Source: an uncultured Methanosarcinaceae archaeon (GTDB lineage Archaea; Halobacteriota; Methanosarcinia; Methanosarcinales; Methanosarcinaceae). Taken from it: a DNA stretch of 64,000 nucleotides. Made by a program: the position numbers and the translations under genes. The notes under the pieces were generated by a model, which ran no database searches, was not told the DNA's origin, and saw nothing but the letters and a program-made list of their open reading frames with translations. Position 1 is the first letter of the stretch; every line of letters starts with the position of its first letter. Location: assembly GCA_963733675.1 (NCBI GenBank), contig CAVTET010000006.1, positions 160,001 through 224,000 of the forward strand, given 5' to 3'. Shown here one piece after another: positions 1,760 through 63,316 of this stretch.

Positions 1760-3394
1760 ATGAAAGCTTCGGATCTTTTTGTCGCCCAACTTGAAGAAGA
1801 AGGCACATAGTATATTTTTGGAATTCCAGGAGAAGAAAACCTGGACTTTATAGAGTCATTGAGAATTTCAGGAATCAAACTAATCGTGACAAGGCATGAA
1901 CAGGCTGCAGCTTTTATGGCTACAACCTACGGAAGGCTGACAGGAAAACCAGGGGTTTGTTTTTCAACTCTGGGACCAGGAGCTACTAACCTAGTCACTG
2001 GCGTTGTCCAGGCACAGCTTATAGGAGCTCCTTTTATATCTATCTCCGGTCAAAAGGCACTGAATAACAACTGGCAGGGTCGTTTTCAGGTTGTAGACAT
2101 TGTCAGGATGATGGAGCCACTCTGCAAAAAGGCATTGACCATAACTGATCCAGGAATGATCCCTACAGTAATCCGAAACGCCTTCAAGCTTGCGGAAGCT
2201 GAAAGACCAGGAGCTGTGCATATCGAACTTCCAGAAGATGTGGCTGAGACAGAAACTGATGTAGTAGTACAAAAGAGAAGCGAAATGAGAATTCCTTATC
2301 CGAATTTAGAAGCTGTGAGAAAAGCTGCTTCTATGATCTGTGAAGCTAAAAGTCCCTTGATAATGGTTTCTTCAGGAGCTAATAGAAAAGGGATCCCTGA
2401 AGAGCTTGGGAACTTTGCCACAAAAACAGGCATTTATCTGGTACATACTCAAATGGGGAAAGGTGTTGTTCCTGATGATTGTATTTATAGTCTCTTTGCA
2501 ACCGGAATACATTCCAGAGATTATATAAACTGTGGAATCGATGGATCTGATCTGATAATCACTGTGGGCTACAACATTGCTGAATACCCTCCTTATCTGT
2601 GGAACGGGAAACTAGATAAAAGGATCATAAATATAGATTTCGTGGAATCCGTGCCTGACAGATACTTTAACCCTGCTGTAGAAATCATTGGAGATGTCAC
2701 CTCTTCAATCAGGGAACTTGCTGCAAGCATTCAGGAGAAACGGGAATTTCCTTTCTTTGAGAAAACCAGATATTTCATTGAGGGCAAAATAAATTCTAGC
2801 CCCCCTCCAAAATATCCTCCCTTGCCACAATCAGTAGTACAGAGTGTCAGAAAGGTGCTCGGAAGGGAAGATATAATCACATTGGACAATGGAATTTATA
2901 AGCTGTGGTTTTCTCGCCTTTACAAGACATATGCCCCCAACACTGTACTTCTTGATAATGCCCTTGCAGCTATGGGCGGCGGGCTCTCTGCAGGGATTAC
3001 TGCAAAACTTCTTCATCCTAAACGCCGAGTGCTAGCAATCTGTGGGGACGGGGGCTTTATGATAAACTGCCAGGAGCTGGAAACGGCAACACGTTATGAG
3101 ATTCCCGTAGTTGTTCTTATTCTTAATGATAATGCCTTTGGTTTTATCAAATGGGAGCAGAAAAAGATGAATTTTGAGGATTTCGGGTTGGATTATGGAA
3201 ATCCTGATTTTGCTCTTTTTGCGGAGAGTTTTGGAGCTGCAGGCTTTAAGGTTAGAGAAGGTGATGACCTTGCAGAAATTCTGGAGAGATCTTTTTCCCT
3301 AAATAAAGTAACTCTTGTCGAATGTCCTATAGATTATTCGACAAATTATGATAGCTTTTCGATAGAACTAAGAAGCCTTAAATGTGAATTCTAA
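1760..3394 (+). CDS. acetolactate synthase large subunit (ThDP-dependent) with one in-frame TAG at codon 17
   Basis: ATG 1760 MKASDLFVAQLEEEGT*YIFGIPGEENLD is in frame with ORF 1859..3394. RHEQAAAFMA, GPGATN and GDGGF...NDN motifs present. Confidence 0.85.
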
Positions 3395-6786: not shown

Positions 6787-7665
6787 TTATTTGTTGATGA
6801 GTGTGCCTGTGCTCTGGGTTATTTTTTCAAAAGCTTCAGTCATCCTTTTTGTTAGAGGCCCTATTTTGCCTGTGCCTATTGATCTTCCATCAAGTTTGGT
6901 TAAGGGAGCAGCTTCCGCAGCTGTGCCAGTAACAAATATTTCATCTGCTGTGTAGAGGTCAAATAGGCCAAGATTTGTTTCGATGGTTTTGTATCCCATA
7001 TCGTCTAGAAGTTCAATCGCTGTTTCTCTGGTGATCCCTTTTAAGTTGCTGATTGTGAAGGGAGTGAATACTTTGTTGTTTTTGACAATAAAAATATTGT
7101 CTCCTGAGCCTTCGCACACAAAACCGTTTTGGTCCAGGAAGATTGCTTCCTCCCCTCCTTTCTCGTTGGCTTCTATCTTTGCCAGAATATTATTCAGATA
7201 GTTCAGAGATTTGATATTCGGAGATAAGGCATCAGGAGCATTTCTTCGGATACAGACGCTGACTCCTGTGAGCCCAATCTCATAAAGGTCACCATACATC
7301 GCGCCCCAGCCCTGGGCTATAACAATCACGCTTGGCTTTTCACATTTCCGGGGATCAAGCCCAAGATCTCCGACTCCTCTTGATACTATTGGGCGGATGT
7401 AAGCGTCTTTTAGATTGTTTTTCCTTAGGGTTTCAAGGATAATCTCAGTCATCTCATCCTTTGTGAGAGGGATATCCATTGCAATTGCTTTTGCTGAGTC
7501 ATAAAGCCTGTCAACATGCTCCTTTAACTTAAAGACACGCCCATTGTATGCCCTTATACCTTCAAACACACCATCACCATAGAGAAAACCATGGTCATAA
7601 ACCGAAACTTTAGCTTCGGATTTGGGAACAAATTTCCCATCCAAGTAAATCAGCAATTCAGTCAT
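6787..7665 (-). CDS. ilvE: branched-chain amino acid aminotransferase
   Basis: [21 protein letters not shown] (PLP lysine), [13 protein letters not shown]. Likely start [10 protein letters not shown] at 7665. Confidence 0.93.
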
Positions 7666-9850: not shown

Positions 9851-11986
9851 TCACACATTCAACATTTTCAACATTTCATTGACTTTGGTGGTTGGAAGCT
9901 GACATTCATAGTTCCTGCATACGTATGCAGTAGCCTTTCCCTCTATTGGCATCTGCATTTTAGTATATTCCGCAAGAGTTATAATTTCTGGGTCTCTGCC
10001 TTCTGGTCTGAAAACTAGCACCTTGTTAGGGATGAAATAGGTCCAAAGCTCTTCAAGCATATGTCCCGTATCAGCAGCCTCGCGCTTTCCGGCAATTACC
10101 ACTTCATATGCAGGACCTAATCTGAAGTCAAGGGCTGACAGGAACTGGGTATATCCAGATGGTGTTTTTCGGATCAATTTTGAAAACGCGCGTTCTAGAG
10201 CTTCAACTGTATCTTCCAGTTCAAGATCCGCAGTTATTCTGGAAAGCCTAAGAAGATTCGACATTTCTATTGAATTCCCAGATGGTAGAGCTGTGTCCGC
10301 AAATTCTTTTGTTCTGAAAATGAGTGATTCGCTATCATCAGCAGTAAAAAAGAGTCCACTATGTATCGGATCCCAAAAATGCTCCAGTAGTTCCTTATTT
10401 AGACAAAGGGCTGCTTTAAGATAGCGCAGTTTGAATCCTGCCTCATAAAGTTCAAGGAGTCCATGAATAAGGAATGCGTAATCATCGACAGTTCCAGAAA
10501 TACCAGCTTCACCATCTCTATAGCGGTGAAGCAATCTTTTGCCGGGATTATAAAGGGTTTTGAGGATAAAATCAGCAGCTTTCTCAGCAACCTTCAAATA
10601 TTTTTCCTCACCAAAAGTCTGAAAACCTTTTGCAAGAGCTGCTATCATAAGCCCGTTCCAATCGGTAAGGATCTTATCATCTCTCAAAGGTCTTTTACGT
10701 TTGTTTCGGGCTTCCAAAAGTTTCTCTTTAGCTAATTTTACCCGCCGCTCGATTTCATCTGTTGAAACTTTGAGTTCGGCAGCGAGGACGCCAAAAGGTC
10801 GGATCATATAAAGGATATTAGTCCCAATCTTTTTATCACTAACTTCTTCTTCAAAATTACCTGCTTCTTTCAAATTGAACACGTTTTTGATTAGTTCGGA
10901 TTCCTCAATACCAAGGACACTCCTTATCTCTTCTAATGTCCAGAGGTAATAAATTCCTTCTTCCCCTTCAACATCTGCATCTTCACCACAGTAAAACCCG
11001 CCTTCAATGGACGTCAGGTCTCTTAGCACGTAATCCATAGTTCCCATTGCCGTTTCTTTATATTTTTTTTTTCTGGTAACCTGATAGGCTTCTGTATATG
11101 CAGCAGCAATAAGAGCTTGATCATATAACATTTTTTCAAAATGGGGGACAATCCACATGTTGTCTGTTGAGTAACGATGGAAACCCGAGCCCAAATGATC
11201 CTGGATACCTCCTCTATACATGTTATCCAGAGTAAATTCCACCATGTTTAGTGCCTCAAGGTTCCCCATGCGCCTCCAGTAACGGAGCAAAAAGAATATT
11301 TTGTGCGGAGTCGGAAATTTAGGTGCCCTCCCAAAGCTCCCGTATTCATTGTCAAACGACTTCAGCAGTTCATCGTAAGCCTTGTCCATTATTGCTTCAC
11401 CCATTTTCTCTCCTGAAGACTCTGAGATCATACTCTGTATCCTTATTTCCTCTCCTGAAGACTCTGAGATCATATTCTGTATTGTTAAAGTGATCTTTTC
11501 AGCCGAATCAATCACCTCTTCATTCTGCCTGGTCCACATCTCCTCTATATTAGGCACGAGTTCTAGCATCCCTATCTGACTTAAACGGGATTTTTTGGGA
11601 ATATAAGTTCCTGCAAAGAAAGGCTTCATTTTCGGTGTCATAATTACACTAAGTGGCCAGCCTCCTCTTCCAAGGAAAATTTGACAAATTGTCATGTATA
11701 AGTTATCGATATCCGGTCTCTCTTCTCTATCTACTTTTACACAAACAAAAGCCCTGTTCATAAGTTTTGCTACTTCTTCATCTTCGAAAGATTCATGTGC
11801 CATTACATGACACCAGTGACAGGTCGAGTAACCAATTGAAAGAAAAATAGGTTTATTTTCTCTCCTGGCTTTTTCAAAAGCTTCTTCTCCCCAAGGATAC
11901 CAATCTACAGGATTATATGCATGCTGCAGAAGGTATGGACTTTTTTCATTGACCAAGCAGTTAGCTTTTCTATTTTCTGTTCCCAA
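9851..11986 (-). CDS. YyaL/SSP411-family thioredoxin-domain protein
   Basis: [38 protein letters not shown]. In-frame 42-bp tandem duplication near 11408-11481. Confidence 0.92.
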
Positions 11987-14929: not shown

Positions 14930-15243
14930 TATAGAACACCGTCGCAGAAATATTTAGCCGCATCAATAACCTTGTTGTTTATTGCTCTCATAACTTGAAA
15001 GGTTTACTTAACCGCTGCTTTATCAAGAAACGATAGCATAGTTCCAACTTCTATTAAGTTATTTCCGGTAAAAAATATATTTTCGCCTAACATTTCTAGG
15101 GGTGATATAGTTTTACTGAAAATTAATAGCTTTAAGCATGCAACTGTACTAAATGAGAATTTAAGTAACAATTTTTATTGTAATTGGTTTATATACCTCA
15201 AGTGCGTATTTTTTTCACATGCTTTTACCATCCCAGGATCAGT

Positions 15244-15383
15244 GGTTCCGTTGCAAAAAATCTGGCTTTTTCACAAAAACATCACAATTCGGGAAGGTAA
15301 TCATTTTAATTCGGGAGAAAATGACACATAAAGGTGAAAATTATAGTGTCAAATTGCAGAAATATTATTTTTGCAACGGAACC
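15244..15383. mobile_element. 140-bp IS6-derived MITE
   Basis: Perfect TIRs GGTTCCGTTGCAAAAA / TTTTTGCAACGGAACC identical to the IS6 copies; no ORF; no TSD. Confidence 0.9.
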
Positions 15384-16610
15384 CTAAAAATTTTGTTCGC
15401 TGGGTTCAAGAATGAAGCTATACTACGCTCTGCACTACGTAGGCTTTTCCGCTGGCTTAATACGAAGGGCGTGACGGCTATAGTCACCGGTGAACGGGGA
15501 GATCCCCCTCTCACTAGATACGGACTCGAAGAGTGCGTCGCAGACTGCGTTATCCTTTTCGATAACAGGATGGAGGAGCAAATAGCCACCAGACGCCTGA
15601 GGATAATTAAGTACAGGGGGTCCAAACATGGCACTAACGAGTATCCTTTCCTGATAGAGGATATCTGTTCTACTAATTACATCACTAGGGCTTGCGCATG
15701 AAGTATCTGCAGGAGGGAGGATCTCAACGGGCATAAAGCGCCTGGATACGATGCTGGGAAGCCAGGGCTACTATCGTGGCAATACAATACTAATTTCCGG
15801 AACAGCCGGTACTGGCAAGACTAGTTTTGGAGCCGAATTCGCCAAAGCTACCTGAGAGCGGGGAGAACGCTGCCTATACTTCGCTTTCGAGGAATCTCCA
15901 AGCCAGGTAATCAGAAACATGAGATCTATAGGTATAGACACTTCCAGCCCTACGTTGATACCGGTTTAATGCAAATAAGTGCCTCACGGCCCATGGCCTA
16001 TGGCTTGGAAATGCATCTGGTAGCCATGCACAGGCTGATAGATAAGTTCAAGCCAGCCGTCGTGATCATAGATCCTATATCAAACATGATCAACGTAGGC
16101 GTTGAGGCCAATGTCAAGTTCACGCTCACGAGACTCGTAGATTACTTGAAGCTCAAGAATATCACTGCAGTATGCACTAGTCTGGTAGAACACGAAAGTA
16201 TCGAGGGCGTAAATGCTCAGGGTATATCTTCTCTCATGGATACTTGGATCAATCTCCGTTTCTTTGAAAATGATGGCGAGCGCAATCGTGGAGTTACTTT
16301 GATAAAGTCAAGAGGCATGGAGTACTCCAATCAGATCAGGGAATATATGATGACTGATAATGAGCATAAAAATCCAATATGTATACCTCTTGGACCTTCA
16401 AGAGGCCTACTTATGGGATCTTCCAGATTTGCTCAGGAAGCGAAGGAGATGGCTGAGGCTGTCACTAAAAGTAAAAACGTGAGGAAGAGGGAAAGAGAAC
16501 TGGAAAATAAGCTAAAATTCCTGGATGCTCAGATAACATAATTAAGCTCCGAGTTTGAGGTGCAGAAAGAGGAGCTTGATAAGCTCACATCCGAAGATGT
16601 GCTCAGAAGT
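15384..16610 (+). pseudogene. kaiC: KaiC-like ATPase, 5'-truncated and frameshifted
   Basis: RRLRIIKYRGSKHGTNEYPF; RISTGIKRLDTMLG; SGTAGTGKT; FEES; GISSLMDTW; KSRGM. Frameshifts and an in-frame TGA; higher GC than flanks. Confidence 0.85.
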
Positions 16611-24736: not shown

Positions 24737-25594
24737 TTAAACTAAACCCGATCTTTGAAGAGTCATCAGGTCTTCAGTAGTGAGTTTCGCTCCACCCTTA
24801 AACTTTTCGAAGATGGACTTGGCATCTTTCTGAAGTTCGGATTTGACGACACGAGACTTTCCATCTTTGTCTTTCTTTTTGAGTTTAAAAATTTCTTTAT
24901 CAAGATCCCTAATTTCCTTCTGTGCATTTATGAAAATTTTATGCTGTTCGTCAGCTGCTTCTTGTGCTTTTACGAATTCTCTGTGAGCAATGTCAGATTC
25001 TGCCCTAATCCTATCCGCTTCCTTAAAAGCTGCAATCATCTTTTCATGGTGTTCTTGAGCTTGCCTAGCATACTCAGCCAACTCGGTATGAAATTTTGAA
25101 GCTTCATCTCTGATCTGCTGAGCTTCATCGAGAATAATCTTGAGTTCTAGATTACCCTCGAGCTGGACTTTTTTAACCTGATACTGCTTTTGAAGCTGAG
25201 TAATCTTCCCAACGAGCTCTCTTTCCTTGCTTGTGCTCAGGACTTCGGTTTGCTGAGTAAATTCAAGTCGATCTATATCTTTCCGAAGAGCTTTTATAGA
25301 CGGTCCAGCTAAATTATTTTGTTTTCGGATGGAGTCTGCCTCTGCAAAGAGTTCATTCGCCTTTGCGTTGGTATCATCGCGCTTATTCTTATATTCACTG
25401 ACCTTCTCATTAATTTCATCCCTGAGGATCTTTAATTCCTGAGCTTCGTTGATAAGATCCTTTGTCCTTTTATTCAGTTCATTGCGCTTTGCAGCAAAAG
25501 CACTGGCTTCTGTGTTCAAAACGTTTCTTTTGTCCTTGGATTCTTCAGAAATGTCCTTCAGATCTGATTTTTTTTTCTGCAATTCTTTTAGCAT
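24737..25594 (-). CDS. archaeal coiled-coil protein (COG1340-like)
   Basis: Heptad-rich; LEFTQQTEVLSTSKERELV; C-terminal FKGGAKLTTEDLMTLQ. Confidence 0.85.
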   Translation of the reverse strand: MLKELQKKKSDLKDISEESKDKRNVLNTEASAFAAKRNELNKRTKDLINEAQELKILRDEINEKVSEYKNKRDDTNAKANELFAEADSIRKQNNLAGPSIKALRKDIDRLEFTQQTEVLSTSKERELVGKITQLQKQYQVKKVQLEGNLELKIILDEAQQIRDEASKFHTELAEYARQAQEHHEKMIAAFKEADRIRAESDIAHREFVKAQEAADEQHKIFINAQKEIRDLDKEIFKLKKKDKDGKSRVVKSELQKDAKSIFEKFKGGAKLTTEDLMTLQRSGLV

Positions 25595-25698: not shown

Positions 25699-26343
25699 TT
25701 AAGAACAGAGATAATGAATTTGAGATCTTTTCATAATGACCACAGCCGCATATTCCATTATGATGTACTTGGTATTGAAAGCTCTGGCAGAAACTGCTCT
25801 CTCAAAGATATGTGCATCATTTGCGCTTTCTCCGACAACTACACCTCGCTCTGGCCGAACCCTGCTAAATAGGATTAGTCCCTCAAATACCCCTCTAGGG
25901 TTGCTTTGTGTGACGGAGCCAACAACTTTGCTTTTTAGGCAGCCATCTTCAACAAGCAATTCATTGGTAACAACTAAATTATTATTAAGTGCCTTACCTG
26001 CTTCCGTGGTAGAAATTGTAAATCCATCGAAAATCATTGTATCTTTATAACCTCTACTTTTAAAGTGAAGGATAAGTTCTGCTACTACCGGCATAATATG
26101 AATCTTGTGTACCGCATAAGGGGTTTTTTCAAGGGAAAGTTCAATGATAATTTTGACCCATTCGGCAAGAGCTTGCTCAAAATCAAGGTTTTTACCTATC
26201 TCTCTCTTCGTAATCTCCTCTACTTTGCCTATAATACCTGCAGCCCTGGTGAACTCATCTATGGTCTCAGCATCTATAAGGTTACTATCCATATCAAAAG
26301 CAATCATTTTGTAGTCATTTGAATCATATATTGGACAGTTCAC
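25699..26343 (-). pseudogene. serB: phosphoserine phosphatase, open frame but catalytic motifs degenerate
   Basis: FDMDSNLIDAETIDE motif I. Expected SGGF reads FDGF, GDGAND reads GESAND, motif III Lys not evident, C-terminus aberrant. Confidence 0.75.
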
Positions 26344-26482: not shown

Positions 26483-26745
26483 AAAGGATCATGTTTCCAA
26501 ATATAATAAGGGTTCTACAAAAAGAAACCACAAAACATAGCATCGATGTCAACGTTTTTGATTGAAATAAATCACATTCCTTTTAAGCTTTTCGGAAGGT
26601 CAATCAAACATACAGAATAAAAACTACATATGAAATATCAATTTATTTGATCTGCATATCTGTGGATTAATATTGCCAAAAGGGATATACTCTTTTTGGA
26701 AGTTCCATTATTAAAGAAAGAAATCAACGCATGATTTTTGGAAAA

Positions 26746-27185
26746 GTGGTTCACATAAACTTTATAACCATGGATAACCTTGGCCGATTCAGATTATCAG
26801 TCTGATCCAAGATGAAATTGTAGCACGAGAAAGAATAACTGTATGAGTATTTGGAATTGGTTCCAATACGAGTCTATCCGAAGCCTTGGACACTGGAAGT
26901 TTCAAGAAGTGAAGAGCAGACTTTTGGTAATTATCAACCCTAGCGCAAAAGCTTTAGTTCACTGGAGTCCTTGTTTTATCAAAAAATGTGCTATACATTG
27001 TGATTTTAGACGGACCAAAAAAGAAAGAAGCCAGAGAGGCTTTGGAGCAGGAAGGCTTTAGATATATTATTCTCCCTACAGATTCGCTCATCAGGGCAAA
27101 AAGATATCCTTTTGATTCAGTGTAAATGGCAACCTTCAATTTCGATGCAATGAAAATATTCTCTGTTTGTAGTTTATTAAAGGGG
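26746..27185 (+). pseudogene. mtd: F420-dependent methylene-H4MPT dehydrogenase relic (N-terminal half only)
   Basis: Broken frames read VVHINFITMDNLG/QIISLIQDEIVARERITV*VFGIGS...ADF/VIINPSA/IVILDGPKKKEAREALEQEGFRYIILPTDSLIRAKRYPFDSV*MATFNFDAMKIFSVC, matching the Mtd N-terminal pattern as recalled; divergent from serB. Confidence 0.8.
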
Positions 27186-27210: not shown

Positions 27211-27594
27211 CTACTTCTTCGCATCCTCGACTTCTTCTAACACATGAATGTATTCCTGAAAAACGGAGGGTATATCAATTGTAGCTAGCAGGTCTACAAT
27301 CCCCAGAGCTCCAATAATTTTCCCTTCCTTTGAGCGAATAGGAGCAACAACCACATTTTTCCCTTTGTATGTACCTGCAATGGGGACCTCATGAACAATT
27401 TTGTTGGTCTTCAATACTTTTTCTAGAACAGGTCCTGTGTAGTCTCTATCAAGAATTTTCCCTTTTTCAAGGCGAAGCCCTTTTTGTTTAAGGCTACGCA
27501 TGGTTGTAGGAAGTCCGACTAGAGAGTGTACTGCTAATGCTATTGATTCAAGGTCTTCAGGTCCTGAGTTCTCTGATATACATAGGGAACTAAT
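27211..27594 (-). CDS. DUF2111-family protein (apparent ATT start)
   Basis: GLPTTMRSL...GLRLEKGKILDRDYTGPVLE...IGALGIVD. RBS AGAGGTGG precedes ATT at 27594. Confidence 0.75.
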   Translation of the reverse strand: MSSLCISENSGPEDLESIALAVHSLVGLPTTMRSLKQKGLRLEKGKILDRDYTGPVLEKVLKTNKIVHEVPIAGTYKGKNVVVAPIRSKEGKIIGALGIVDLLATIDIPSVFQEYIHVLEEVEDAKK

Positions 27595-27714
27595 GTTTCC
27601 ACCTCTGTAAATACTGAAGATCAGCGTTATCAAGAATTCACAGATTTTCAGAAATGAACAACTTGATCTCACCTTCAGCTATATTTAGAATATGTTTTTT
27701 CAAAGAATATATAT

Positions 27715-28377
27715 TCACTCCTTATTTTCAAGAGCTTTTATAAAAGCTTGTTTATGAAGCTCTCCTGATTCATGGATCCCTCCAAAATCGCCACGTGCCG
27801 CTCTACAAGGATAATGCTGAATCAGCAGACCGGCTTTAGGGGGAGCGTCTTTTAGAGGAACTCCAATGATTTCTTTTGCCATATACCAAGTACTTCCGCA
27901 GGGCGCGCCTTTTAGAACCTTAACATCTACAATTTTCTCGTTCTTTGTCTTAACTTCCAGACTAGGTGATCCAAATATATCCGTGAAAGGCCTGTTGAAG
28001 TCATTGGGCTCAAGTGTACAGCAAATCTCATGTACCTCGATATCCATTCCAGACGCTTCAGAAATCTGGTTGAGTTCAGGAATTGAAGCTCTGGATGGTC
28101 CACCTGGAACAATTAGGGAACGCACACCTGCACTTGAAGCAAGTTTTGCAATTGCAGATGTCAGGTCCGGATGCAGAGAATATGTAATTACTATTTCAGC
28201 AGAAAAAACTCGCTTGTCGAAATTAAGAGTTTCTAGATATTGATCTGGATCTTCAATGAATAAGGGTACTAACTCAGGCAAGTCAGAAGTGACGACTGAA
28301 AAATCACTGTGTTCCTTAACAGTATCAATCAAACGATGGCCATATTTGCCTCTCGTGATAACTCCTATTAATGTCAT
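27715..28377 (-). CDS. DUF166-family protein
   Basis: RGKYGHR, YSLHPDL, EICCTL, GAPCGSTW, HYPCRA. Confidence 0.8.
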   Translation of the reverse strand: MTLIGVITRGKYGHRLIDTVKEHSDFSVVTSDLPELVPLFIEDPDQYLETLNFDKRVFSAEIVITYSLHPDLTSAIAKLASSAGVRSLIVPGGPSRASIPELNQISEASGMDIEVHEICCTLEPNDFNRPFTDIFGSPSLEVKTKNEKIVDVKVLKGAPCGSTWYMAKEIIGVPLKDAPPKAGLLIQHYPCRAARGDFGGIHESGELHKQAFIKALENKE

Positions 28378-28531: not shown

Positions 28532-29149
28532 ATGAGAGGCAAACTGATTACACTCGAAGGTATAGACGGTTCAGGTAAAAGTATGGTTGCAAATAAACTT
28601 CAGGAAAATCTTGAAATTAGCGCATTTGATCCTGTATTTACCAGGGAGCCAACAAGAGGTACACTTACTGGGACTGCTGTGGAGAAAGCCATTAAGTTGG
28701 ATACAGACCAACTTGCTGAGCTCTTTCTTTTTACAGCTGACCATGCTGAACATCTGGCAAAGATTGTTAAACCTGCACTTGGATGTGGAAAATCAGTTAT
28801 TTCTGATCGCTATTCCGACAGCTGCTATGCTTATCAGGGTGTAACCTTACAAAATCATTTGAAGAATTCGTTAGAATGGATAAAAAATCTCCATAGAGAT
28901 TGGACCATTGTCCCTGACCTGACTTTTCTATTTGATATCAGCCCCGAAATATCAGTTGAACGCTGTTTGATGCGAGGAAATCAAAGCAAGTTCGAAAAAC
29001 TAGAGTTTTTGAGAAAAGTCCGAGAGCTTTTCCTCAGTCTCGCATGCGAAGACCCTGAGCGCTTCATCATAATCGATGCTTCTTGTTTTCCTGAACGCGT
29101 AGAAACGGAAGTCACAGAGAAAGTTCTGGAGTTTCTGCATAGAAAGTGA
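28532..29149 (+). CDS. tmk: thymidylate kinase
   Basis: LEGIDGSGKS, TREP, ISDRYSDS.YAYQG. Confidence 0.95.
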   Translation: MRGKLITLEGIDGSGKSMVANKLQENLEISAFDPVFTREPTRGTLTGTAVEKAIKLDTDQLAELFLFTADHAEHLAKIVKPALGCGKSVISDRYSDSCYAYQGVTLQNHLKNSLEWIKNLHRDWTIVPDLTFLFDISPEISVERCLMRGNQSKFEKLEFLRKVRELFLSLACEDPERFIIIDASCFPERVETEVTEKVLEFLHRK

Positions 29150-36500: not shown

Positions 36501-39155
36501 GAACGGTTGACGGACTATCTGGCCGTGGTTATAGCCAAAGCACAAGCTGAGGAATTTTTGGAGAAAGCACACGAGAATCTCCAAACGCAATCCGAGGAGT
36601 TACAGGCTCAGTCCGACGAGATCCAAATACAAAATTAGGAGTTACAGACTCAGTCAGAAGAGCTTCATGCAGCATATAAAACTCTGCAGGAGAGCGAGAT
36701 CAAGTACCTCGACCTGTTCGAGACAGTGCAGGAGGTCTTCTTCATCGATCGACTCATCTACGATGAACAGGGTAATTTTATCGACTGGATTTTCGAGGAT
36801 CTCAACCCAGCTGGATTTGAGCTCCTCGATCTGAAAGGCCCGGCTTTCGAGCAAGGCTGTTATGTTCCAGTACCACAGTCCTTACGTGGATAAGGAATTG
36901 TTGTTAACGGTGATCGTCTGATCTCCGCCCAAATGGACATCACAAAACAAAAAAAGCACAAGCGAAGTTAAAAGAAATACTTGACAATTTAGAAATGTTA
37001 GTTAAAGAACGTACAAATGAACTTGAAACAGCTTTTAATTTATTGAAGGGAATCGAAAAAGGTCTTGCTGAAGCTCAAAGAATATCTCACATTGGAAGCT
37101 GGGATTGGAATATTGTAACTGATGAAACATCTTGGTCTGATGAGACATATCGCATTTTTGAGCTTGATCCTCAAGAATTTAGCGAAACTTGCAACTCATT
37201 TTTAAGTAATGTGTACCCAGAAGGTCGAGATTATGTGGATGATGCCGTCAAAAAAGCTTTGAACGGAGAACCCTTGATTATTGACTATCGGATCATCTTA
37301 TCCAATGGAAAAGAGCGGGACGTCTATGTCGAATCCGAACTTATTTTCGATGAAAAAAAATATCCATATTAAAATTAAAGGAACGGTGCAGGATATTACA
37401 GAACGCAAGCTATTAAAGGCAGAACTAGATTCTATAGCATGTCTGCCTCAGAAAACCCCCAATCATGTGGTACGTCTGAGCAAAGGCCTTATCATAAACT
37501 ATGCCAATCCTGCTGCTCAAGTGTTGTTGACAAATTGGGGTAGTGGTATCAATCAAAAAGCTCCTACAACAATAACAGATATGGCCGTTGCAGCCTTGGA
37601 TGATGGTGTCCAGCGTAAGTTTGAGTGCAACTACGCCAATAACGCATACCTTATAAATATCACTCCGTTCCCTAAATCTGGCTACGTCAATCTTTATGCC
37701 TGTGACATCACAGAGCGAATAAGAGGGGACGAAATGTTAAAGTTGAAATTAGAAGAACTTAGTCGCTCAAATGAAGAATTGGAACAATTTGCTTATTTTT
37801 CGTCTCACGATTTACAGGAACCCCTGCGGATGATAACAAGTTATTTGCAGCTTTTACAAAGAAGATATCAGGGTAATCTTGATGATAAGGCTGATAAATA
37901 CATACACTTTGCTGCTGATGGGGCTTCACGTATGCAAAATTTGATAAACGATCTTTTAGAGTTCTCTCGAGTAACTAGAAGTGATAGAGAGCCTAAAATT
38001 ACAAATTGTGAATTTATTTTGAATCAGGCACTTTCCAATTTAAAATTGATGATAAAAGATAATAAAGTTACGTTTCTGTTGCAAAAAATCCTACTATTTA
38101 AGTAAAAACTTTAGTTTCACAGCAAAAAACATAAAAATGCAAAATACTTCTCAGATAACATTTGTTTGCGTTTTTAGGTAATACTTTGTCATTTTTGAGT
38201 TCACTTATTGCAGATAGGTAAGCTAAATTTCTATCTACAGTTATTACATTTGGAATTTGATTATGATTAGAACTCAAAGCTTTCTTAAAAAACGTTTCGC
38301 AGCATTTCTATCACGCTTTGCACTCAGCATAAAATCAACTGTGCTTCCAGTTGAATCAACTGCTCTGTAAAGATATTTACCTTTTACTTTGATATAGGTT
38401 TCATCAACTCTTTACAAATAGTTAGTTAGTATTAAATGCCTTCTTATCCTCTTTTCCATCTCAGGTGAATATTGATGTACTCATCTCATGATTGTTGTAT
38501 TGTCGACTTTTATTCCTCTTTCTGCCATCATTTCCTTTAAATTTTTATAGCTCAATGGATATTTTCAGTACCATCTTACTGTTTGCAGAATGATCTCACC
38601 TACAAAGTGTTTTCATTTAAAGGGATTAGGTAGCATATTATATACTCTTAAATTCCTATTTATTTCATAGTATCGATCTCATATTTTTTGCAACGGAACC
38701 CTTTTTATTCTATTGTATCATTAGAAAGGATTTTTTGCAACGGAACCAAAGTTACTATATCTCATGATCCTTTACCTTATGTAATGGCAGATCCTACCCA
38801 GCTGATTCAGGTATTTCAAAATCTGATATTCAATGGAATAAAATTCAAGAGTGAAGAAGCACCCAAAATTCACGCTTCTGCAGAGAAAAAAGCTAGTGAA
38901 TGGGTATTTTCAGTGCAAGATAACGGAATTGGAATTGATTCGCAATATTCGGGAAGAATCTTTGAAATATTTAAAAGACTGAATAGTAGGGAAAAGTATT
39001 CTGAAACAGGAATAGGGCTTGCAATTTGTAAAAGAATTGTAGACAGACATGGTGGCCGCATATGGGTAGAATCTAAACTAGGCAAAGGTTCGACTTTTTA
39101 TTTCACTTTACCAATCAATCCCATCGAATTTCAAAAACTAAGTTTTAACACATAA
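33536..39155 (+). pseudogene. large multi-sensor (GAF/PAS) histidine kinase, fragmented and IS6-interrupted
   Basis: GAF and PAS/PAC fragments (DITERK), SHDLQEPLR H-box, HATPase ([28 protein letters not shown]). Many frameshifts and stops. Confidence 0.9.
38072..38747 (-). mobile_element. composite IS6 relic with 8-bp target duplication
   Basis: AAAGTTAC at 38064-38071 and 38748-38755. Deleted IS6 transposase; internal TIR ending at ~38699 followed by ~47 bp of a second IS6 end. Confidence 0.9.
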
Positions 39156-42959: not shown

Positions 42960-43813
42960 GGTTCCGTTGCAAAAACTTCAAAAAAATATGTAAATCTATA
43001 AGTGATTAATAAAAATCAAAACATTCAAGGAAAATGTACTAACATTATAAAACTATACCAAATAATTGATTAATGTATTTGACTTCATTAAGAACAGAGT
43101 AATTTAGATCGATTACTTGTCCTTTTTTGATCATATTCATAGCTTCAATTCTTTTTAAAGTTTTATTAGCAGATCGAAAAAACTGAAATCCTAACATTGG
43201 ATTAACGATTCGCTTTATAGATCTATGATCTTGTTCTATAATGTTATTCAAATACTTGATTTGTCGAATGCCTACGTTTTTAGGTAGTATTTTATCAATT
43301 TTTAGTTTATCTATAGCAGGTGGATAAGCTGGATTCTTATCAACGGTTATTAATCTTGGAATTTGATTATGATTAGAACTTAAAGCTTTCTTAAAGAATC
43401 TCTTCGCTGCCTTTCTATCTCGTTTTGCACTTAACATGAAATCAATTGTATCTCCATTTGAGTCAACTGCTCGGTAAAAATATTTCCATTTACCTTTTAC
43501 TTTGATATAGGTTTCATCAACTCTCCACGAATCATTTGCTGGTCTTAAATGTCTTCTTATCTTCTTTTCTATTTCAGGGGAATATTGATGTACCCATCTC
43601 ATTCTAGTACTGTGATCAACTTGAATTCCTCTTTCTATCATCATTCCCTTTAAATTTCTATAGCTCAATGGATATTTTAAGTACCATCTTACATTCAATA
43701 GGATAATTTCTCCTTCATAATGCTTCCATTTAAAGGAATTAGATAGCATATTACTATCTTTGGTTTTCTTTTTATTCTATTGTATCATTAGAAAGGATTT
43801 TTGCAACGGAACC
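42960..43813 (-). mobile_element. IS6-family element, intact
   Basis: TIRs GGTTCCGTTGCAAAAA; 854 bp; no TSD. Confidence 0.95.
43045..43749 (-). CDS. IS6-family DDE transposase
   Basis: [34 protein letters not shown]. Confidence 0.95.
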   Translation of the reverse strand: MLSNSFKWKHYEGEIILLNVRWYLKYPLSYRNLKGMMIERGIQVDHSTRMRWVHQYSPEIEKKIRRHLRPANDSWRVDETYIKVKGKWKYFYRAVDSNGDTIDFMLSAKRDRKAAKRFFKKALSSNHNQIPRLITVDKNPAYPPAIDKLKIDKILPKNVGIRQIKYLNNIIEQDHRSIKRIVNPMLGFQFFRSANKTLKRIEAMNMIKKGQVIDLNYSVLNEVKYINQLFGIVL

Positions 43814-46854: not shown

Positions 46855-48715
46855 GTGAACTCCCCCTCTCTGTCAGGTTTATATCCTTCGATGAAGGGGC
46901 TTCCTTCGAGTAATTCCTTCACGTGTTCTCAAGTTTGAGATCCATCGGGAATTCTGTATTGTCGAAGATATCAACAATTTGTTGATAGCCCGTCCACAAG
47001 ACATTTTGTTATAGGAAATGTAACATAATACTGATAGAACTATTTAGATCCCTATCAATATTGTTCCCGCCACCACAAATCATAACTCACTTCCAAGAAG
47101 GCATATCATGAAGTTTTCACAGAACAATATTTCTAGTTGTTGTTCTTCGTCAATTCTTATTCACTTTTACCAATAAGTTTTGCTTATCGGTCATGAATTG
47201 AACAAATTTACATACTTTACCTAGAACCTCAATCGAATGATTTTGCCCTTTATTTTGTTTAGTTTTCTTTTCCTTTTTACCGTCTTTTACTTTAGGTTGA
47301 GCCATTTATGCACACTAAGGTCATCTACTATGATAGTTTTAGCTTTAGTGTTTTCAACCATAGTTTTGGAAAGTTTTTGTTGAAAATCTTTAACTTGATT
47401 TACTTTCTTTTGACTCATTTTAGTAACTGGTTTAGCTATTCTTAGATATGTCTTACTTTTTGTAGGACCTTTTAACGCCAATACAATGATCCTTGATTTA
47501 GCTTTATCAATCTTAGGATCCCAATAATTATCAGGTCTAGATGATTTTACTTCGAAAAATTTACCATAAGTATTGATAGCAGTAATTATCTTCGTGATAC
47601 CTAAATCAATAGCTTAATATATTCAGTTATCAAAATAAAAATCTTCATATCCAATTCATAAGCAACGCAAATAAAAAATTTACCTCTTGCTTTGTAAGGA
47701 TTATCGTTTAAAATTTCAACATGTTTGATTTTCAACCATTAACTAAATTACCTACATCAAAGGATATAGAAACATCATTCACATTACGTGAAAATGTAAT
47801 TATATTATTTTTAACTTTGAAGCCGCTTTGATTGTAGGTTAGAGTCATAAGATAATTCCTACCTTTGAAGCTAGGTGGTCATGCTTTCAAATCTCCAGTT
47901 TTAATATGGCCAAAAAAGGAATGATAACTACCATCAAGTTTTTTCAAGATACCTTGAAGTGTTTTGGAATATACTATGTTGAATTCAGTACTCCATTTTT
48001 TTGAAATCATGAAGTTTATTTTGTTTTTCAGCGTATTTTACACTACGCATTTCTTTATCATAAGCATCCTTTCTATTCGCAAGAGCGAAGTTATAGACAA
48101 TCCTACATTTGTCAGACCGTTCCCAATGCACATTAGTCTGTTCTTCAGTTGCATAAATCTGTATTTTCTTTGCTAGTTGCATGTTTGCTCTGACTCTCAA
48201 CATATTTTTTTAAAATATCAAATGTCAATTGTCTTTTTGTTGCTATGAAATATGATCTTAACCAGAATGTGTCTTACCACAACATTGTTTTAACATCAGA
48301 AAAATTTCTTCTGATTTCTCTTGAAGAGATTGTTTTGATAGTGTTGATATATTTTGGAATATCCAATGTTGGTTTTGAGGTTAAAATCATGTGAAAATAA
48401 TCTATATCACACCCACCATTTAGAAATTTTACATCAAAAGTTTTGCTTATATCATTGATTTTGGATTTTAGTGAATACACTATCTTTTGACTATGAAGAG
48501 TTTTTCTTCGGCATTTTACGCATTGTATAAAAGGATAGTTGATTGTATAAACAGAATAATTCTATTGATCGAGGTTATACTTTATAGTTTTAATTTTAAA
48601 GTAAAAACTATAACTATCTATATCTTTTCCATCTTAAAAAGGATCGAAAGTTGATGGCTTTTATCCCATACGTGCCACTCTGATGCGTGTTGAAGAAGGG
48701 GACTTCTCGCCTTAG
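46855..48715 (-). mobile_element. IS200/IS605 element (tnpA plus tnpB), both pseudogenized
   Basis: tnpA relic ~48240-48586 (DYFHMIL..KP...INTIKTISSREI); tnpB relic ~47000-48182 (CRIVYNFAL, AIDLGI, IIVDDL, DRDLN); GAAGGGG hairpin-type ends at both sides. Confidence 0.8.
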
Positions 48716-53322: not shown

Positions 53323-54176
53323 GGTTCCGTTGCAAAAAATCCTTTCTAATGATACAATAGAATAAAAAGAAAACCAAAGATAGTAACATGCTATCTAATT
53401 CCTTTAAATGGAAGCATTATGAAGGGGAAATTATCTTATTGAATGTAAGATGGTACTTAAAATATCCATTGAGCTATAGAAATTTAAAGGAAATGATGGC
53501 AGAAAGGGGAGTAAAAGTCGACAATACAACAATCATGAGATGGGTACATCAATATTCCCCTGAAATAGAAAAGAAGATAAGAAGACATTTAAGACCAGCA
53601 AATGATTCGTGGAGAGTTGATGAAACCTATATCAAAGTAAAAGGTAAATGGAAATATTTTTACCGAGCAGTTGACTCAAATGGAGATACAATTGATTTCA
53701 TGTTAAGTGCAAAACGAGATAGAAAGGCAGCGAAGAGATTCTTTAAGAAAGCTTTAAGTTCTAATCATAATCAAATTCCAAGATTAATAACCGTTGATAA
53801 GAATCCAGCTTATCCACCTGCTATAGATAAACTAAAAATTGATAAAATACTACCTAAAAACGTAGGCATTCGACAAATCAAGTATTTGAATAACATTATA
53901 GAACAAGATCATAGATCTATAAAGCGAATCGTTAATCCAATGTTAGGATTTCAGTTTTTTCGATCTGCTAATAAAACTTTAAAAAGAATTGAAGCTATGA
54001 ATATGATCAAAAAAGGACAAGTAATCGATCTAAATTACTCTGTTCTTAATGAAGTCAAATACATTAATCAATTATTTGGTATAGTTTTATAATGTTAGTA
54101 CATTTTTCTTGAATATTTTGATTTTATTCATTACTTATAAATTTACATATTTTGTTGAAGTTTTTGCAACGGAACC
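53323..54176 (+). mobile_element. IS6-family element, intact
   Basis: TIRs GGTTCCGTTGCAAAAA; 854 bp; near-identical to 42960..43813 in opposite orientation; no TSD. Confidence 0.95.
53388..54092 (+). CDS. IS6-family DDE transposase
   Basis: Same motifs as 43045..43749. Confidence 0.95.
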   Translation: MLSNSFKWKHYEGEIILLNVRWYLKYPLSYRNLKEMMAERGVKVDNTTIMRWVHQYSPEIEKKIRRHLRPANDSWRVDETYIKVKGKWKYFYRAVDSNGDTIDFMLSAKRDRKAAKRFFKKALSSNHNQIPRLITVDKNPAYPPAIDKLKIDKILPKNVGIRQIKYLNNIIEQDHRSIKRIVNPMLGFQFFRSANKTLKRIEAMNMIKKGQVIDLNYSVLNEVKYINQLFGIVL

Positions 54177-56399: not shown

Positions 56400-56990
56400 T
56401 GTGCACCCCACTGCAAGCAACTGGGTATGTTCACACCAGCGCTCCTGGTATAGTTTTTTTCACTAAAAATCGATTATTTTCATTTGCTCATATGCTTACT
56501 TTTCTTCCTGATTCTGAACATATTTTTTTATAATATCGGAAGTAGTTCCGTCTCCGACTGTACCAATGTATCCTCCCTCACTCCATAGTTCTCCAGCCCA
56601 AAGCTGTTTTTTAATTTCAGGGTATTCTTTGAAGATTTTTCTGGCTGTTATGCTTTTAATAATCTGCATTACTCTTGAAGGAGAATACTTTGGCTCAGCC
56701 TCAACAAAAAATATATATGCTCAACATTGCAGCCGATTGCATAAAATTCAAAAGAGTATCTTTAACCAATCTCAGAGCATACGTGTTTTAAAAAGTGCAC
56801 TGTGCAATAATTTAAAAGATCTTTATAGTATTTCTACGAAAAGCCATGTGATATCTAATTTTATAGACACAATAGTTTGCATGTCTTGATTCCATCTACA
56901 GCAAAAAGTGATTAAGGATATAAATCAGTTCTTTAACAAAAGTTACCTTGGAAGTTTCCATCCCCGTAACAAGCTGCTGGGCATTCGAAT
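56400..56990 (-). mobile_element. IS200-type element, tnpA pseudogene
   Basis: Minus strand KQLWAGELWSEGGYIGTVGDGTTSDIIKKYVQNQ; subterminal hairpins CCCCACTGCAAGCAACTGGG and CCCCGTAACAAGCTGCTGGG. Confidence 0.8.
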
Positions 56991-57109
56991 GAGAATGAAA
57001 TTTAATTTTAAGACAGGCTTTGGAAAATGGATTCACACCAAAAGATTTGACAGCTCCATCAAGTCACAAATACTAAGTACAAGTTATTCAAATAGAAAAT
57101 TGGAGATTA

Positions 57110-62444: not shown

Positions 62445-63316
62445 GAGACTAATCCGAAAAGTCCTGCTGATCTTAATGTTATCAATGCGCACTCTAAATG
62501 TAGCATAGCAAGGTAATTTTCAATTTTCTTTTCCCATCTTATAAGGAGTCTTCTGAATCTATTCAGCCAAGAATGGGTCCTTTCTACAACCCATCTTCTT
62601 GCCCTAAAACCAGGTATGTCTCTTCCTATGTTTTCTTCTCCACGACTTTTGATATGCGCAGTATAACCATATTCTTCAACCAATTTTCTGATATCGGTGA
62701 AATCATAACCCTTATCCATGCATATATTCTGAATTATGTTTTCTGGAGAAGGTCTTTCAAAGAATATGGCGTCTAAAGTCCTTTTTACAAGCTTTTTATC
62801 GTGACGATTGGCTCCATCCACGACAACAGAAAGTGGTATGCCTTTACCATCAGTTAAAACAATCCTTTTTGTACCTTTTTGCCACGATCAGTAGGATTAA
62901 CTCCTGTTCCAGCTCCATCTAATGATGCTTTTGTCATAGCACCATCAATCGATTGTCATTCCCATTCTAATCCTTTTTCGAAATTATACTCAACAAGACC
63001 AGCCAGCCACATGCTCTCAAATAACCCTGATAGTTGCCATTCCTGAAATCGATTATGTACAGTGCTTGGAGCTCCATAAAATCGTGGCAATGCTTTCCAT
63101 TGTCAACCAGTAAAAAGGAGATAGAAAATGCCACTCATTATTTTCCTATCACCCTTTCTAGGTCTTCCAGACTTCTTTTTTGGCTTAGGTACAGGTAGTA
63201 AAGGTTCTATTTTTTTCCAATAATCTTCAGAAAGTTAGTAGTCCTGAACAATTTTCCGTTTTGTCATTACCACATATGATCTTAAATTGAAAGTAGATTA
63301 TTTTTCGGATAGGCTC
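62445..63316 (-). mobile_element. second IS5 (IS1031-like) copy, more degraded
   Basis: TIRs GAGACTAATCCGAAAA / TTTTCGGATAGGCTC, TTA on both flanks; near-identical to 333..1204. Confidence 0.9.

Follow-up and report, generated by a model that had tools for sequence, protein, structure and literature searches.

The 64,000-nt stretch of archaeal DNA that was analysed here, referred to below as the window, carries a broken mtd-like sequence that is flanked by recognisable genes on both sides (Table 1). Upstream lie the genes for a DUF7121 coiled-coil protein and for a conserved protein of 214 aa, and downstream those for a DUF2111 and a DUF166 protein. A DUF2111 protein search of species-representative genomes returned six loci: those of the MAGs fen_51 (L001) and bog_70 (L003), of three uncultured Methanosarcinaceae MAGs (L002, L004 and L005), and of Methanosarcina sp. 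Ant1 (L006). Nucleotide identity to the window amounts to 95.5% for L001, 89-93% for L002-L005 and 80% for Ant1, and the DUF2111 protein of the window is 91-92% identical in amino acid sequence to those of L001-L005 and 71% identical to that of Ant1. In a published table, fen_51 belongs to the GTDB species Methanosarcina sp003157235 and bog_70 to Methanosarcina sp003164755.

In Ant1, an intact mtd of 276 codons sits between DUF2111 and the conserved ORF, which adjoins mtd in that genome as well and is followed by DUF7121. This is the slot of the remnant, in the same orientation, and by its flanking genes the remnant corresponds to the ancestral Methanosarcina mtd locus. The stretch immediately 5′ of the remnant resembles both the sequence upstream of Ant1 mtd and the N-terminal ORF extension of two intact Mtd proteins, P0020 and P0170, of the type referred to below as type A, a likeness that was judged by eye and is unscored. 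Beside the mtd slot, DUF166 and a thymidylate kinase gene (tmk; 28532-29149, +) are divergently oriented in all seven genomes compared.

Table 1. Position, strand and supporting evidence of the features in and around the mtd slot of the window
Feature	Coordinates	Strand	Basis
DUF7121 coiled-coil gene, intact; synteny anchor and selection control	24737-25594	-	PF23435, E 7e-61
Conserved ORF, 214 aa; upstream synteny anchor	25699-26343	-	no Pfam match at 1e-5
Conserved 5′ flank of the ancestral mtd locus	26680-26745	+	translation compared by eye
mtd remnant	26746-27182	+	PF01993 profile match, tblastn with Ant1 Mtd, codon-register alignment
Deletion junction	27175-27178	.	blastn breakpoints and alignment
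DUF2111 gene, intact; downstream synteny anchor	27211-27672	-	PF09884, E 2e-35
DUF166 gene, intact; synteny anchor and selection control	27715-28377	-	PF02593, E 1e-55

The mtd remnant and its surroundings

Translated in frame 26562 with stop codons read as X, the remnant matches the PF01993 (MTD) profile with a score of 71.9 bits, the cut-off being 25, and an E-value of 7.3e-20. This match spans residues 77-207, corresponding to nucleotides 26790-27182, and extends over profile positions 15-148 of 274 only; the two remaining forward frames have no Pfam match. When the window was searched by tblastn with the 276-aa Mtd that is encoded intact in Methanosarcina sp. Ant1 (L006), the same nucleotides aligned over 132 aa, of which 55.3% are identical (E 3e-36). 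The initial ~14 codons are in a different frame from the rest and begin with a GTG at 26746 that aligns to the ATG of Ant1, so that the start codon of the remnant has changed from ATG to GTG.

In the codon register of Ant1, the remnant contains three in-register stops, at codons 34 (TGA), 56 (TGA) and 128 (TAA), as well as four single-base deletions, at codons 14, 61, 70 and 71. Read as one continuous frame, the segment from 26790 to 27182 includes five stops, and all three kinds (TGA, TAA and TAG) are present. Homology to Ant1 Mtd stops near codon 147-152, which leaves codons 1 to ~147 of 276, and the C-terminal half of mtd is missing from the window. Alignments by blastn to L002, L003 and L004 break at window positions 27175/27178 and skip between 418 and ~1200 nt that are kept in these loci. 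No uninterrupted ORF of ~276 codons with a start codon is present, and no ORF of at least 60 aa covers the remnant in the mtd frame.

The original prediction, made from the letters of the sequence, had placed at 26746-27185 an Mtd-like N-terminal half with at least three stops and several frameshifts, its C-terminal half missing before DUF2111, and had called it invisible in the ORF track. These coordinates are accurate, and the description is borne out by the profile and tblastn matches, by the three in-register stops and four 1-nt deletions, by the position of the blastn break just ahead of the PF09884 gene, and by the lack of an ORF in the mtd frame. Judged by its sequence, the mtd segment given in Table 1 is a non-functional relic of the ancestral mtd at its original locus.

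The wider window has a G+C content of 36%, ORFs of at least 100 aa cover just 50% of it, and it bears split genes as well as insertion sequences in several copies. Two IS240-type DDE transposase elements of 791 nt, at 43012-43802 and 53335-54125, are inverted relative to each other, 97% complementary and 9.5 kb apart, and a partial IS240-type copy of 266 nt (38375-38640) lies between the HisKA (37281-38105) and HATPase_c (38688-39155) parts of a split histidine kinase. Two IS4/5-family elements (DDE_Tnp_1 and DUF4096; 339-1104 and 62452-63215), one close to either end of the window, occur in direct orientation and are 96% identical over their repeated blocks. A decayed IS200/IS605 element at 47290-48561 (-) is left as separate short open stretches encoding Y1_Tnp, HTH_OrfB_IS605 and OrfB_IS605. 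A KaiC-family ATPase is represented by two partial ORFs only (15219-15701 and 15969-16541, +), and the ORF of a TPP enzyme (1859-3394, +) begins at position 39 of its N-terminal domain profile and may be truncated. The partial KaiC and TPP ORFs, together with the low ORF coverage and G+C content, suggest a genome rich in broken genes.

Among 147 stop-to-stop segments of at least 45 aa (translation table 11) from the 15 ORF-poor gaps of the window, none matches a C1-pathway family; Pfam matches were obtained for ten, to IS4/5, IS200/IS605, HisKA_2, thioredoxin, a zinc finger, an HTH domain and cytochrome b5. Scanning the window against Rfam and for tRNAs gave no matches. A repeat of ~0.5 kb without a Pfam match occurs in the window at 56466-57005, in L002 at 6803-7339 and in L004 at 10576-11069. 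In L002 and L004, a copy of ~69% identity separates DUF2111 from the 3′ end of the remnant; at its own remnant the window is without a copy, which is gone together with the 3′ half of the remnant.

Common lesions and the age of decay

Remnants occupy the same slot in four of the five related loci (L001-L004); L005 is rearranged at the mtd slot, and no remnant match was found there. All five copies, that of the window and those of L001-L004, have 1-nt deletions at codons 14, 61 and 71 and a TAA at codon 128. The TGA at codon 34 is present in four of the five remnants, a stop at codon 80 likewise in four of five, and the 3′ deletion is common to the window and L001 (fen_51).

Pairwise comparison of the five remnants (ten pairs, Nei-Gojobori) yields dN/dS values of 0.82-1.86, without a sign of purifying selection. 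The corresponding values of the flanking genes between the same genomes are 0.21-0.29 for DUF166, which spans 0.09-0.29 in all, 0.31-0.69 for the thymidylate kinase, which is rather high inside this clade, and 0.03-0.06 for DUF7121. Relative to Ant1, the remnants have a dN of 0.25-0.38 at a dS of 0.65-0.73, compared with a dN of 0.035-0.106 for the flanking genes. The remnants in these related peat or soil Methanosarcina drift neutrally.

The recurrence of the lesions bears on the possibility that cells have an intact gene, the apparent breaks being due to errors in sequencing or assembly or else bypassed by recoding, with pyrrolysine at TAG and programmed frameshifts. Some of the related MAGs derive from error-prone long reads, and the protein set does include frameshifted Mtd fragments with 90% identity or more to intact genes; however, the same lesions recur in five assemblies that are independent of one another and stem from different projects. 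A sequence in which TGA, TAA and TAG are all present is beyond the reach of any one recoding rule, and neither error nor recoding fits a gene of which half is deleted and whose dN/dS is ~1. Since the lesions recur, three kinds of stop are present, half of the gene is missing and selection is absent, sequencing error and recoding were rejected, and we assign them next to no probability.

The lesions common to the remnants and their neutral dN/dS mark a decay that is old and runs through the clade, and this mtd copy appears to have died well before the lineages split. The ancestral mtd would have been inactivated before a group of Methanosarcina lineages from peat or soil, five or more of them, radiated; neutral drift would have followed, with lineage-specific stops and deletions accruing, and the branch leading to the window and fen_51 would then have lost the 3′ half of the remnant.

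Mtd paralogues and the second locus

Searched with the Ant1 Mtd protein, a set of 6142 candidates gave 823 proteins with an E-value no higher than 1e-30. Identity to Ant1 Mtd is 58-100% for the 120 intact homologues listed out of these 823, as against 55% for the remnant, and named Methanococcoides Mtd proteins among the matches listed are 74-76% identical to the Ant1 protein. Among the proteins nearest to the remnant, two types of intact Mtd can be told apart: the ORFs of type A (P0020, P0170, P0171 and P0179) reach upstream into sequence that is homologous to the 5′ flank of the Ant1 gene and of the remnant, and type B (P0023, P0185, P0188, P0189 and P0026) has an upstream sequence that differs from that of type A. 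P0193 is an apparent mosaic of the two. Types A and B are both listed on contigs of 1162445, 220452, 184391 and 51717 nt, four cases that we read as both copies residing on one contig, and in relatives with both types the two can be less than 52 kb apart.

The remnant and types A and B have seven derived residues in common (positions 44, 77, 82, 88, 182, 202 and 264). At four further positions (6, 25, 130 and 220) the remnant is ancestral where A and B have a common derived state, and site analysis revealed no consistent A-only or B-only state in it. A maximum-likelihood tree with 45 rows, in which the non-Methanosarcina rows served as root, has the five remnants as sister to the A+B group, which is itself supported at 98/91. 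As far as these alignments go, the data connect the remnant with the lineage in which mtd is duplicated. Because the remnant is ancestral at the four positions derived in A and B, duplication before death is not what the tree gives, unless A and B have exchanged sequence; tree and sites together give no order of duplication and death, and exchange between A and B would blur it. A literature search found no paper on an mtd pseudogene or on mtd duplication in Methanosarcina.

A second mtd locus is documented in one of the species that bear the remnant. File 2 of the supplement of PMC10805028 includes 11 Stordalen Methanosarcina MAGs, which represent three species, those of fen_51 and bog_70 and a further one. 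According to this file, contig c_000000099171 of MAG 20120700_S1D_59 (bog_70 species) carries fmdD (_2), fmdC (_3), fmdA (_4), fmdF (_5), a K00319 gene with PF01993, that is mtd (_6), one further gene, and ftr (_8); in Ant1, mtd lies elsewhere, adjoining DUF2111. All six annotated genes have non-zero values in the same expression column (PMC10805028). In the same tables, fmdC, fmdA, fmdF, ftr and mch of 20120700_S1D_59 are of DRAM rank A and transcribed, with mch placed elsewhere than the fmd-ftr cluster and non-zero in 6 of 27 columns, and two more Methanosarcina MAGs, one from the fen_51 species and that of the further species, have a transcribed mer that is likewise of rank A (PMC10805028). 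Since no fmd gene is found within 4 kb of the remnant locus of the bog_70 species (L003), the K00319 gene in the fmd-ftr cluster represents a second mtd locus.

Because the clade, or at least one species of it, has a second mtd locus, duplication or relocation followed by decay is the simplest account of the relic. In the proposed course of events, mtd would have been duplicated or relocated, giving rise to a second locus inside the C1 cluster (fmdDCAF, mtd, one gene, ftr), and the original mtd, now redundant, would have been left to decay. On balance we consider it probable that the remnant is such a redundant ancestral copy, which decayed after mtd had been duplicated or relocated into the fmd-ftr cluster. 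The second locus would then encode a type B Mtd, the duplication would have preceded the death of the remnant copy, and the genome from which the window derives would itself be expected to have the second locus. No sequence links type B to the fmd-ftr locus. Types A and B can be within 52 kb of each other in relatives, and it also speaks against redundancy that no mtd is found in the 26.7 kb upstream or the 36.8 kb downstream of the remnant; tblastn and Pfam searches of the 64-kb window detected neither a second mtd nor an fmd gene, nor any other gene of the C1 pathway, whole or broken.

It is important to point out that the relic does not show a loss of the pathway, since both a second mtd locus and working neighbour genes are present in a related species. 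The original prediction had gone from the mtd ruin to a Methanosarcina that may have lost its C1 oxidation/reduction branch. The ruin itself stands, as does the assignment to Methanosarcina, fen_51 being the closest named record, and the view that the lesion load marks an old inactivation agrees with the common lesions and the neutral dN/dS. The leap to a lost branch is unsupported as stated, given the second mtd locus and the transcribed fmd, ftr and mch genes tabulated for the bog_70-species MAG.

Alternatively, no functional Mtd may be left in the source genome, the second copy being absent or broken too. Such an organism would be capable neither of CO2 reduction to methane nor of methyl oxidation and would live on acetate and/or by H2-dependent methyl reduction. 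Welander and Metcalf reportedly found in 2008 that M. barkeri pathway mutants grow neither on methanol alone nor on H2/CO2 and do grow on methanol plus H2, which is the phenotype that a loss of Mtd would predict. We regard this alternative as unlikely, though it merits serious attention. The 64-kb window fits it, with no second mtd inside, and so do aspects of the gene complement tabulated for the Stordalen Methanosarcina MAGs: these encode 0.40-0.73 of a list of 15 KOs for the 'Wood-Ljungdahl' pathway, at most 11 of 15, compared with 13 of 15 reached by Methanoregula and Methanothrix, and they have ack and pta in 11 of 11, complete HdrDE in 10 of 11 and complete MtrA-H in 7 of 11 cases (PMC10805028). 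The same study classes these species as acetoclastic and hydrogenotrophic, some of them as methylotrophic as well.

A loss of Mtd would also be in keeping with the annotation of the second copy. In the tables of PMC10805028, the fmd-ftr-linked mtd gene of 20120700_S1D_59 is of DRAM rank C. As described in PMC7498326, rank A denotes a reciprocal best hit of more than 350 bits, and rank C a hit that is below 350 bits or is not a reciprocal best hit. Full-length mtd is of rank A in the Methanoregula rows, in the Methanothrix/Fen-7 rows and in seven of the nine Methanobacterium rows; the two exceptions constitute one mtd that is split into two adjacent genes, both of rank C (PMC10805028). The rank-C gene of 20120700_S1D_59 is internal to its contig, since gene _8 comes after it (PMC10805028), and its recorded Pfam match implies more than 35% coverage of the model (PMC7498326). 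Because it is of rank C while full-length mtd elsewhere in the table is of rank A, the second-locus gene may be a fragment of ~100-200 aa, although rank C has other causes too.

In public data, a type B ORF that ends after 80 aa is common: P0249 is listed on 28 contigs and P0251 on 19, as against three contigs for P0024, the intact form closest to this ORF, which reads on past that point. This could reflect the loss of Mtd, but the cut allele is not tied to any particular genome, and intact type B is listed on many long contigs, among them contigs of 983491, 492441 and 355583 nt, without type A being listed for a contig of equal length. A short-fragment search with P0024 gave 25 matches among 108 candidates and no new link to remnant-bearing genomes. 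The remaining pathway contrasts with a loss of Mtd: fmdC, fmdA, fmdF, ftr, mch and mer of rank A, transcribed in the tabulated MAGs of relatives, count against it because one would not expect them in a branch that had served no purpose since the old death of the remnant copy. In Methanimicrococcus blatticola, by contrast, those genes are gone, as reported in PMC9723798.

A related possibility, which we likewise hold to be unlikely, is that both mtd copies are dead, the ancestral one for a long time and the fmd-ftr-linked one more recently. These free-living peat Methanosarcina would then have been caught while CO2 reduction and methyl oxidation are being lost, mtd going first and fmd, ftr, mch and mer still intact; this would constitute a second, independent and non-gut case beside Methanimicrococcus, and the field labels 'hydrogenotrophic' or 'all modes' for these MAGs would be wrong. 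Some lineages may have lost Mtd completely.

Finally, a non-homologous or distant enzyme could supply the Mtd activity, so that the pathway would run without a PF01993 gene. The kept and transcribed pathway genes tabulated for the MAGs of related species would be accommodated by such a substitute; however, no candidate was seen, and the homologous second mtd locus is a simpler answer, which makes a substitute highly improbable. Methanosarcina is not known to have Hmd.

Pathway assignment and comparison with known systems

Peat and fen Methanosarcina have been given their methane pathways from KO presence tables. Because the ancestral mtd is a ruin, pathway calls for these abundant wetland methanogens hinge on the second copy. 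If that copy is whole, the remnant is an ordinary relic and a tidy case of a pathway gene that has moved beside its partners. A broken copy would mean that methane models of thawing permafrost credit CO2 reduction and methanol disproportionation to organisms that are incapable of either.

Compared with the intact Mtd (PF01993) of Ant1, the remnant is alike in homology, neighbours, orientation and 5′ flank, but it differs in being reduced to codons 1 to ~147, in its stops and frameshifts, in the lack of an ATG and in its neutral evolution. The redundant-copy account that we favour for this remnant likens it to the pseudogenisation of duplicated genes: two paralogue types exist in relatives, a second locus is present in a remnant-bearing species, and the relic drifts neutrally. 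It departs from that pattern in that the tree does not give the order of duplication before death.

The closest counterpart for a loss of the branch as a whole is Methanimicrococcus blatticola, which PMC9723798 presents as the one described member of the Methanosarcinaceae without the C1 branch, with fwd/fmd, ftr, mch and mtd gone. The resemblance lies in a member of the Methanosarcinaceae whose mtd is dead or missing at the ancestral position, with mer and mtr kept in the related MAGs for which tables are available. The two differ in several respects: M. blatticola is gut-associated and, in the published account, its whole gene set is gone, whereas the relatives of the remnant are free-living peat and soil lineages, and their MAGs, as tabulated, have transcribed fmd, ftr, mch and mer genes of rank A together with a second mtd locus. 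Because these four are kept and transcribed in such relatives, unlike in M. blatticola, the data lend no support to the idea that this clade lost the entire branch long ago.
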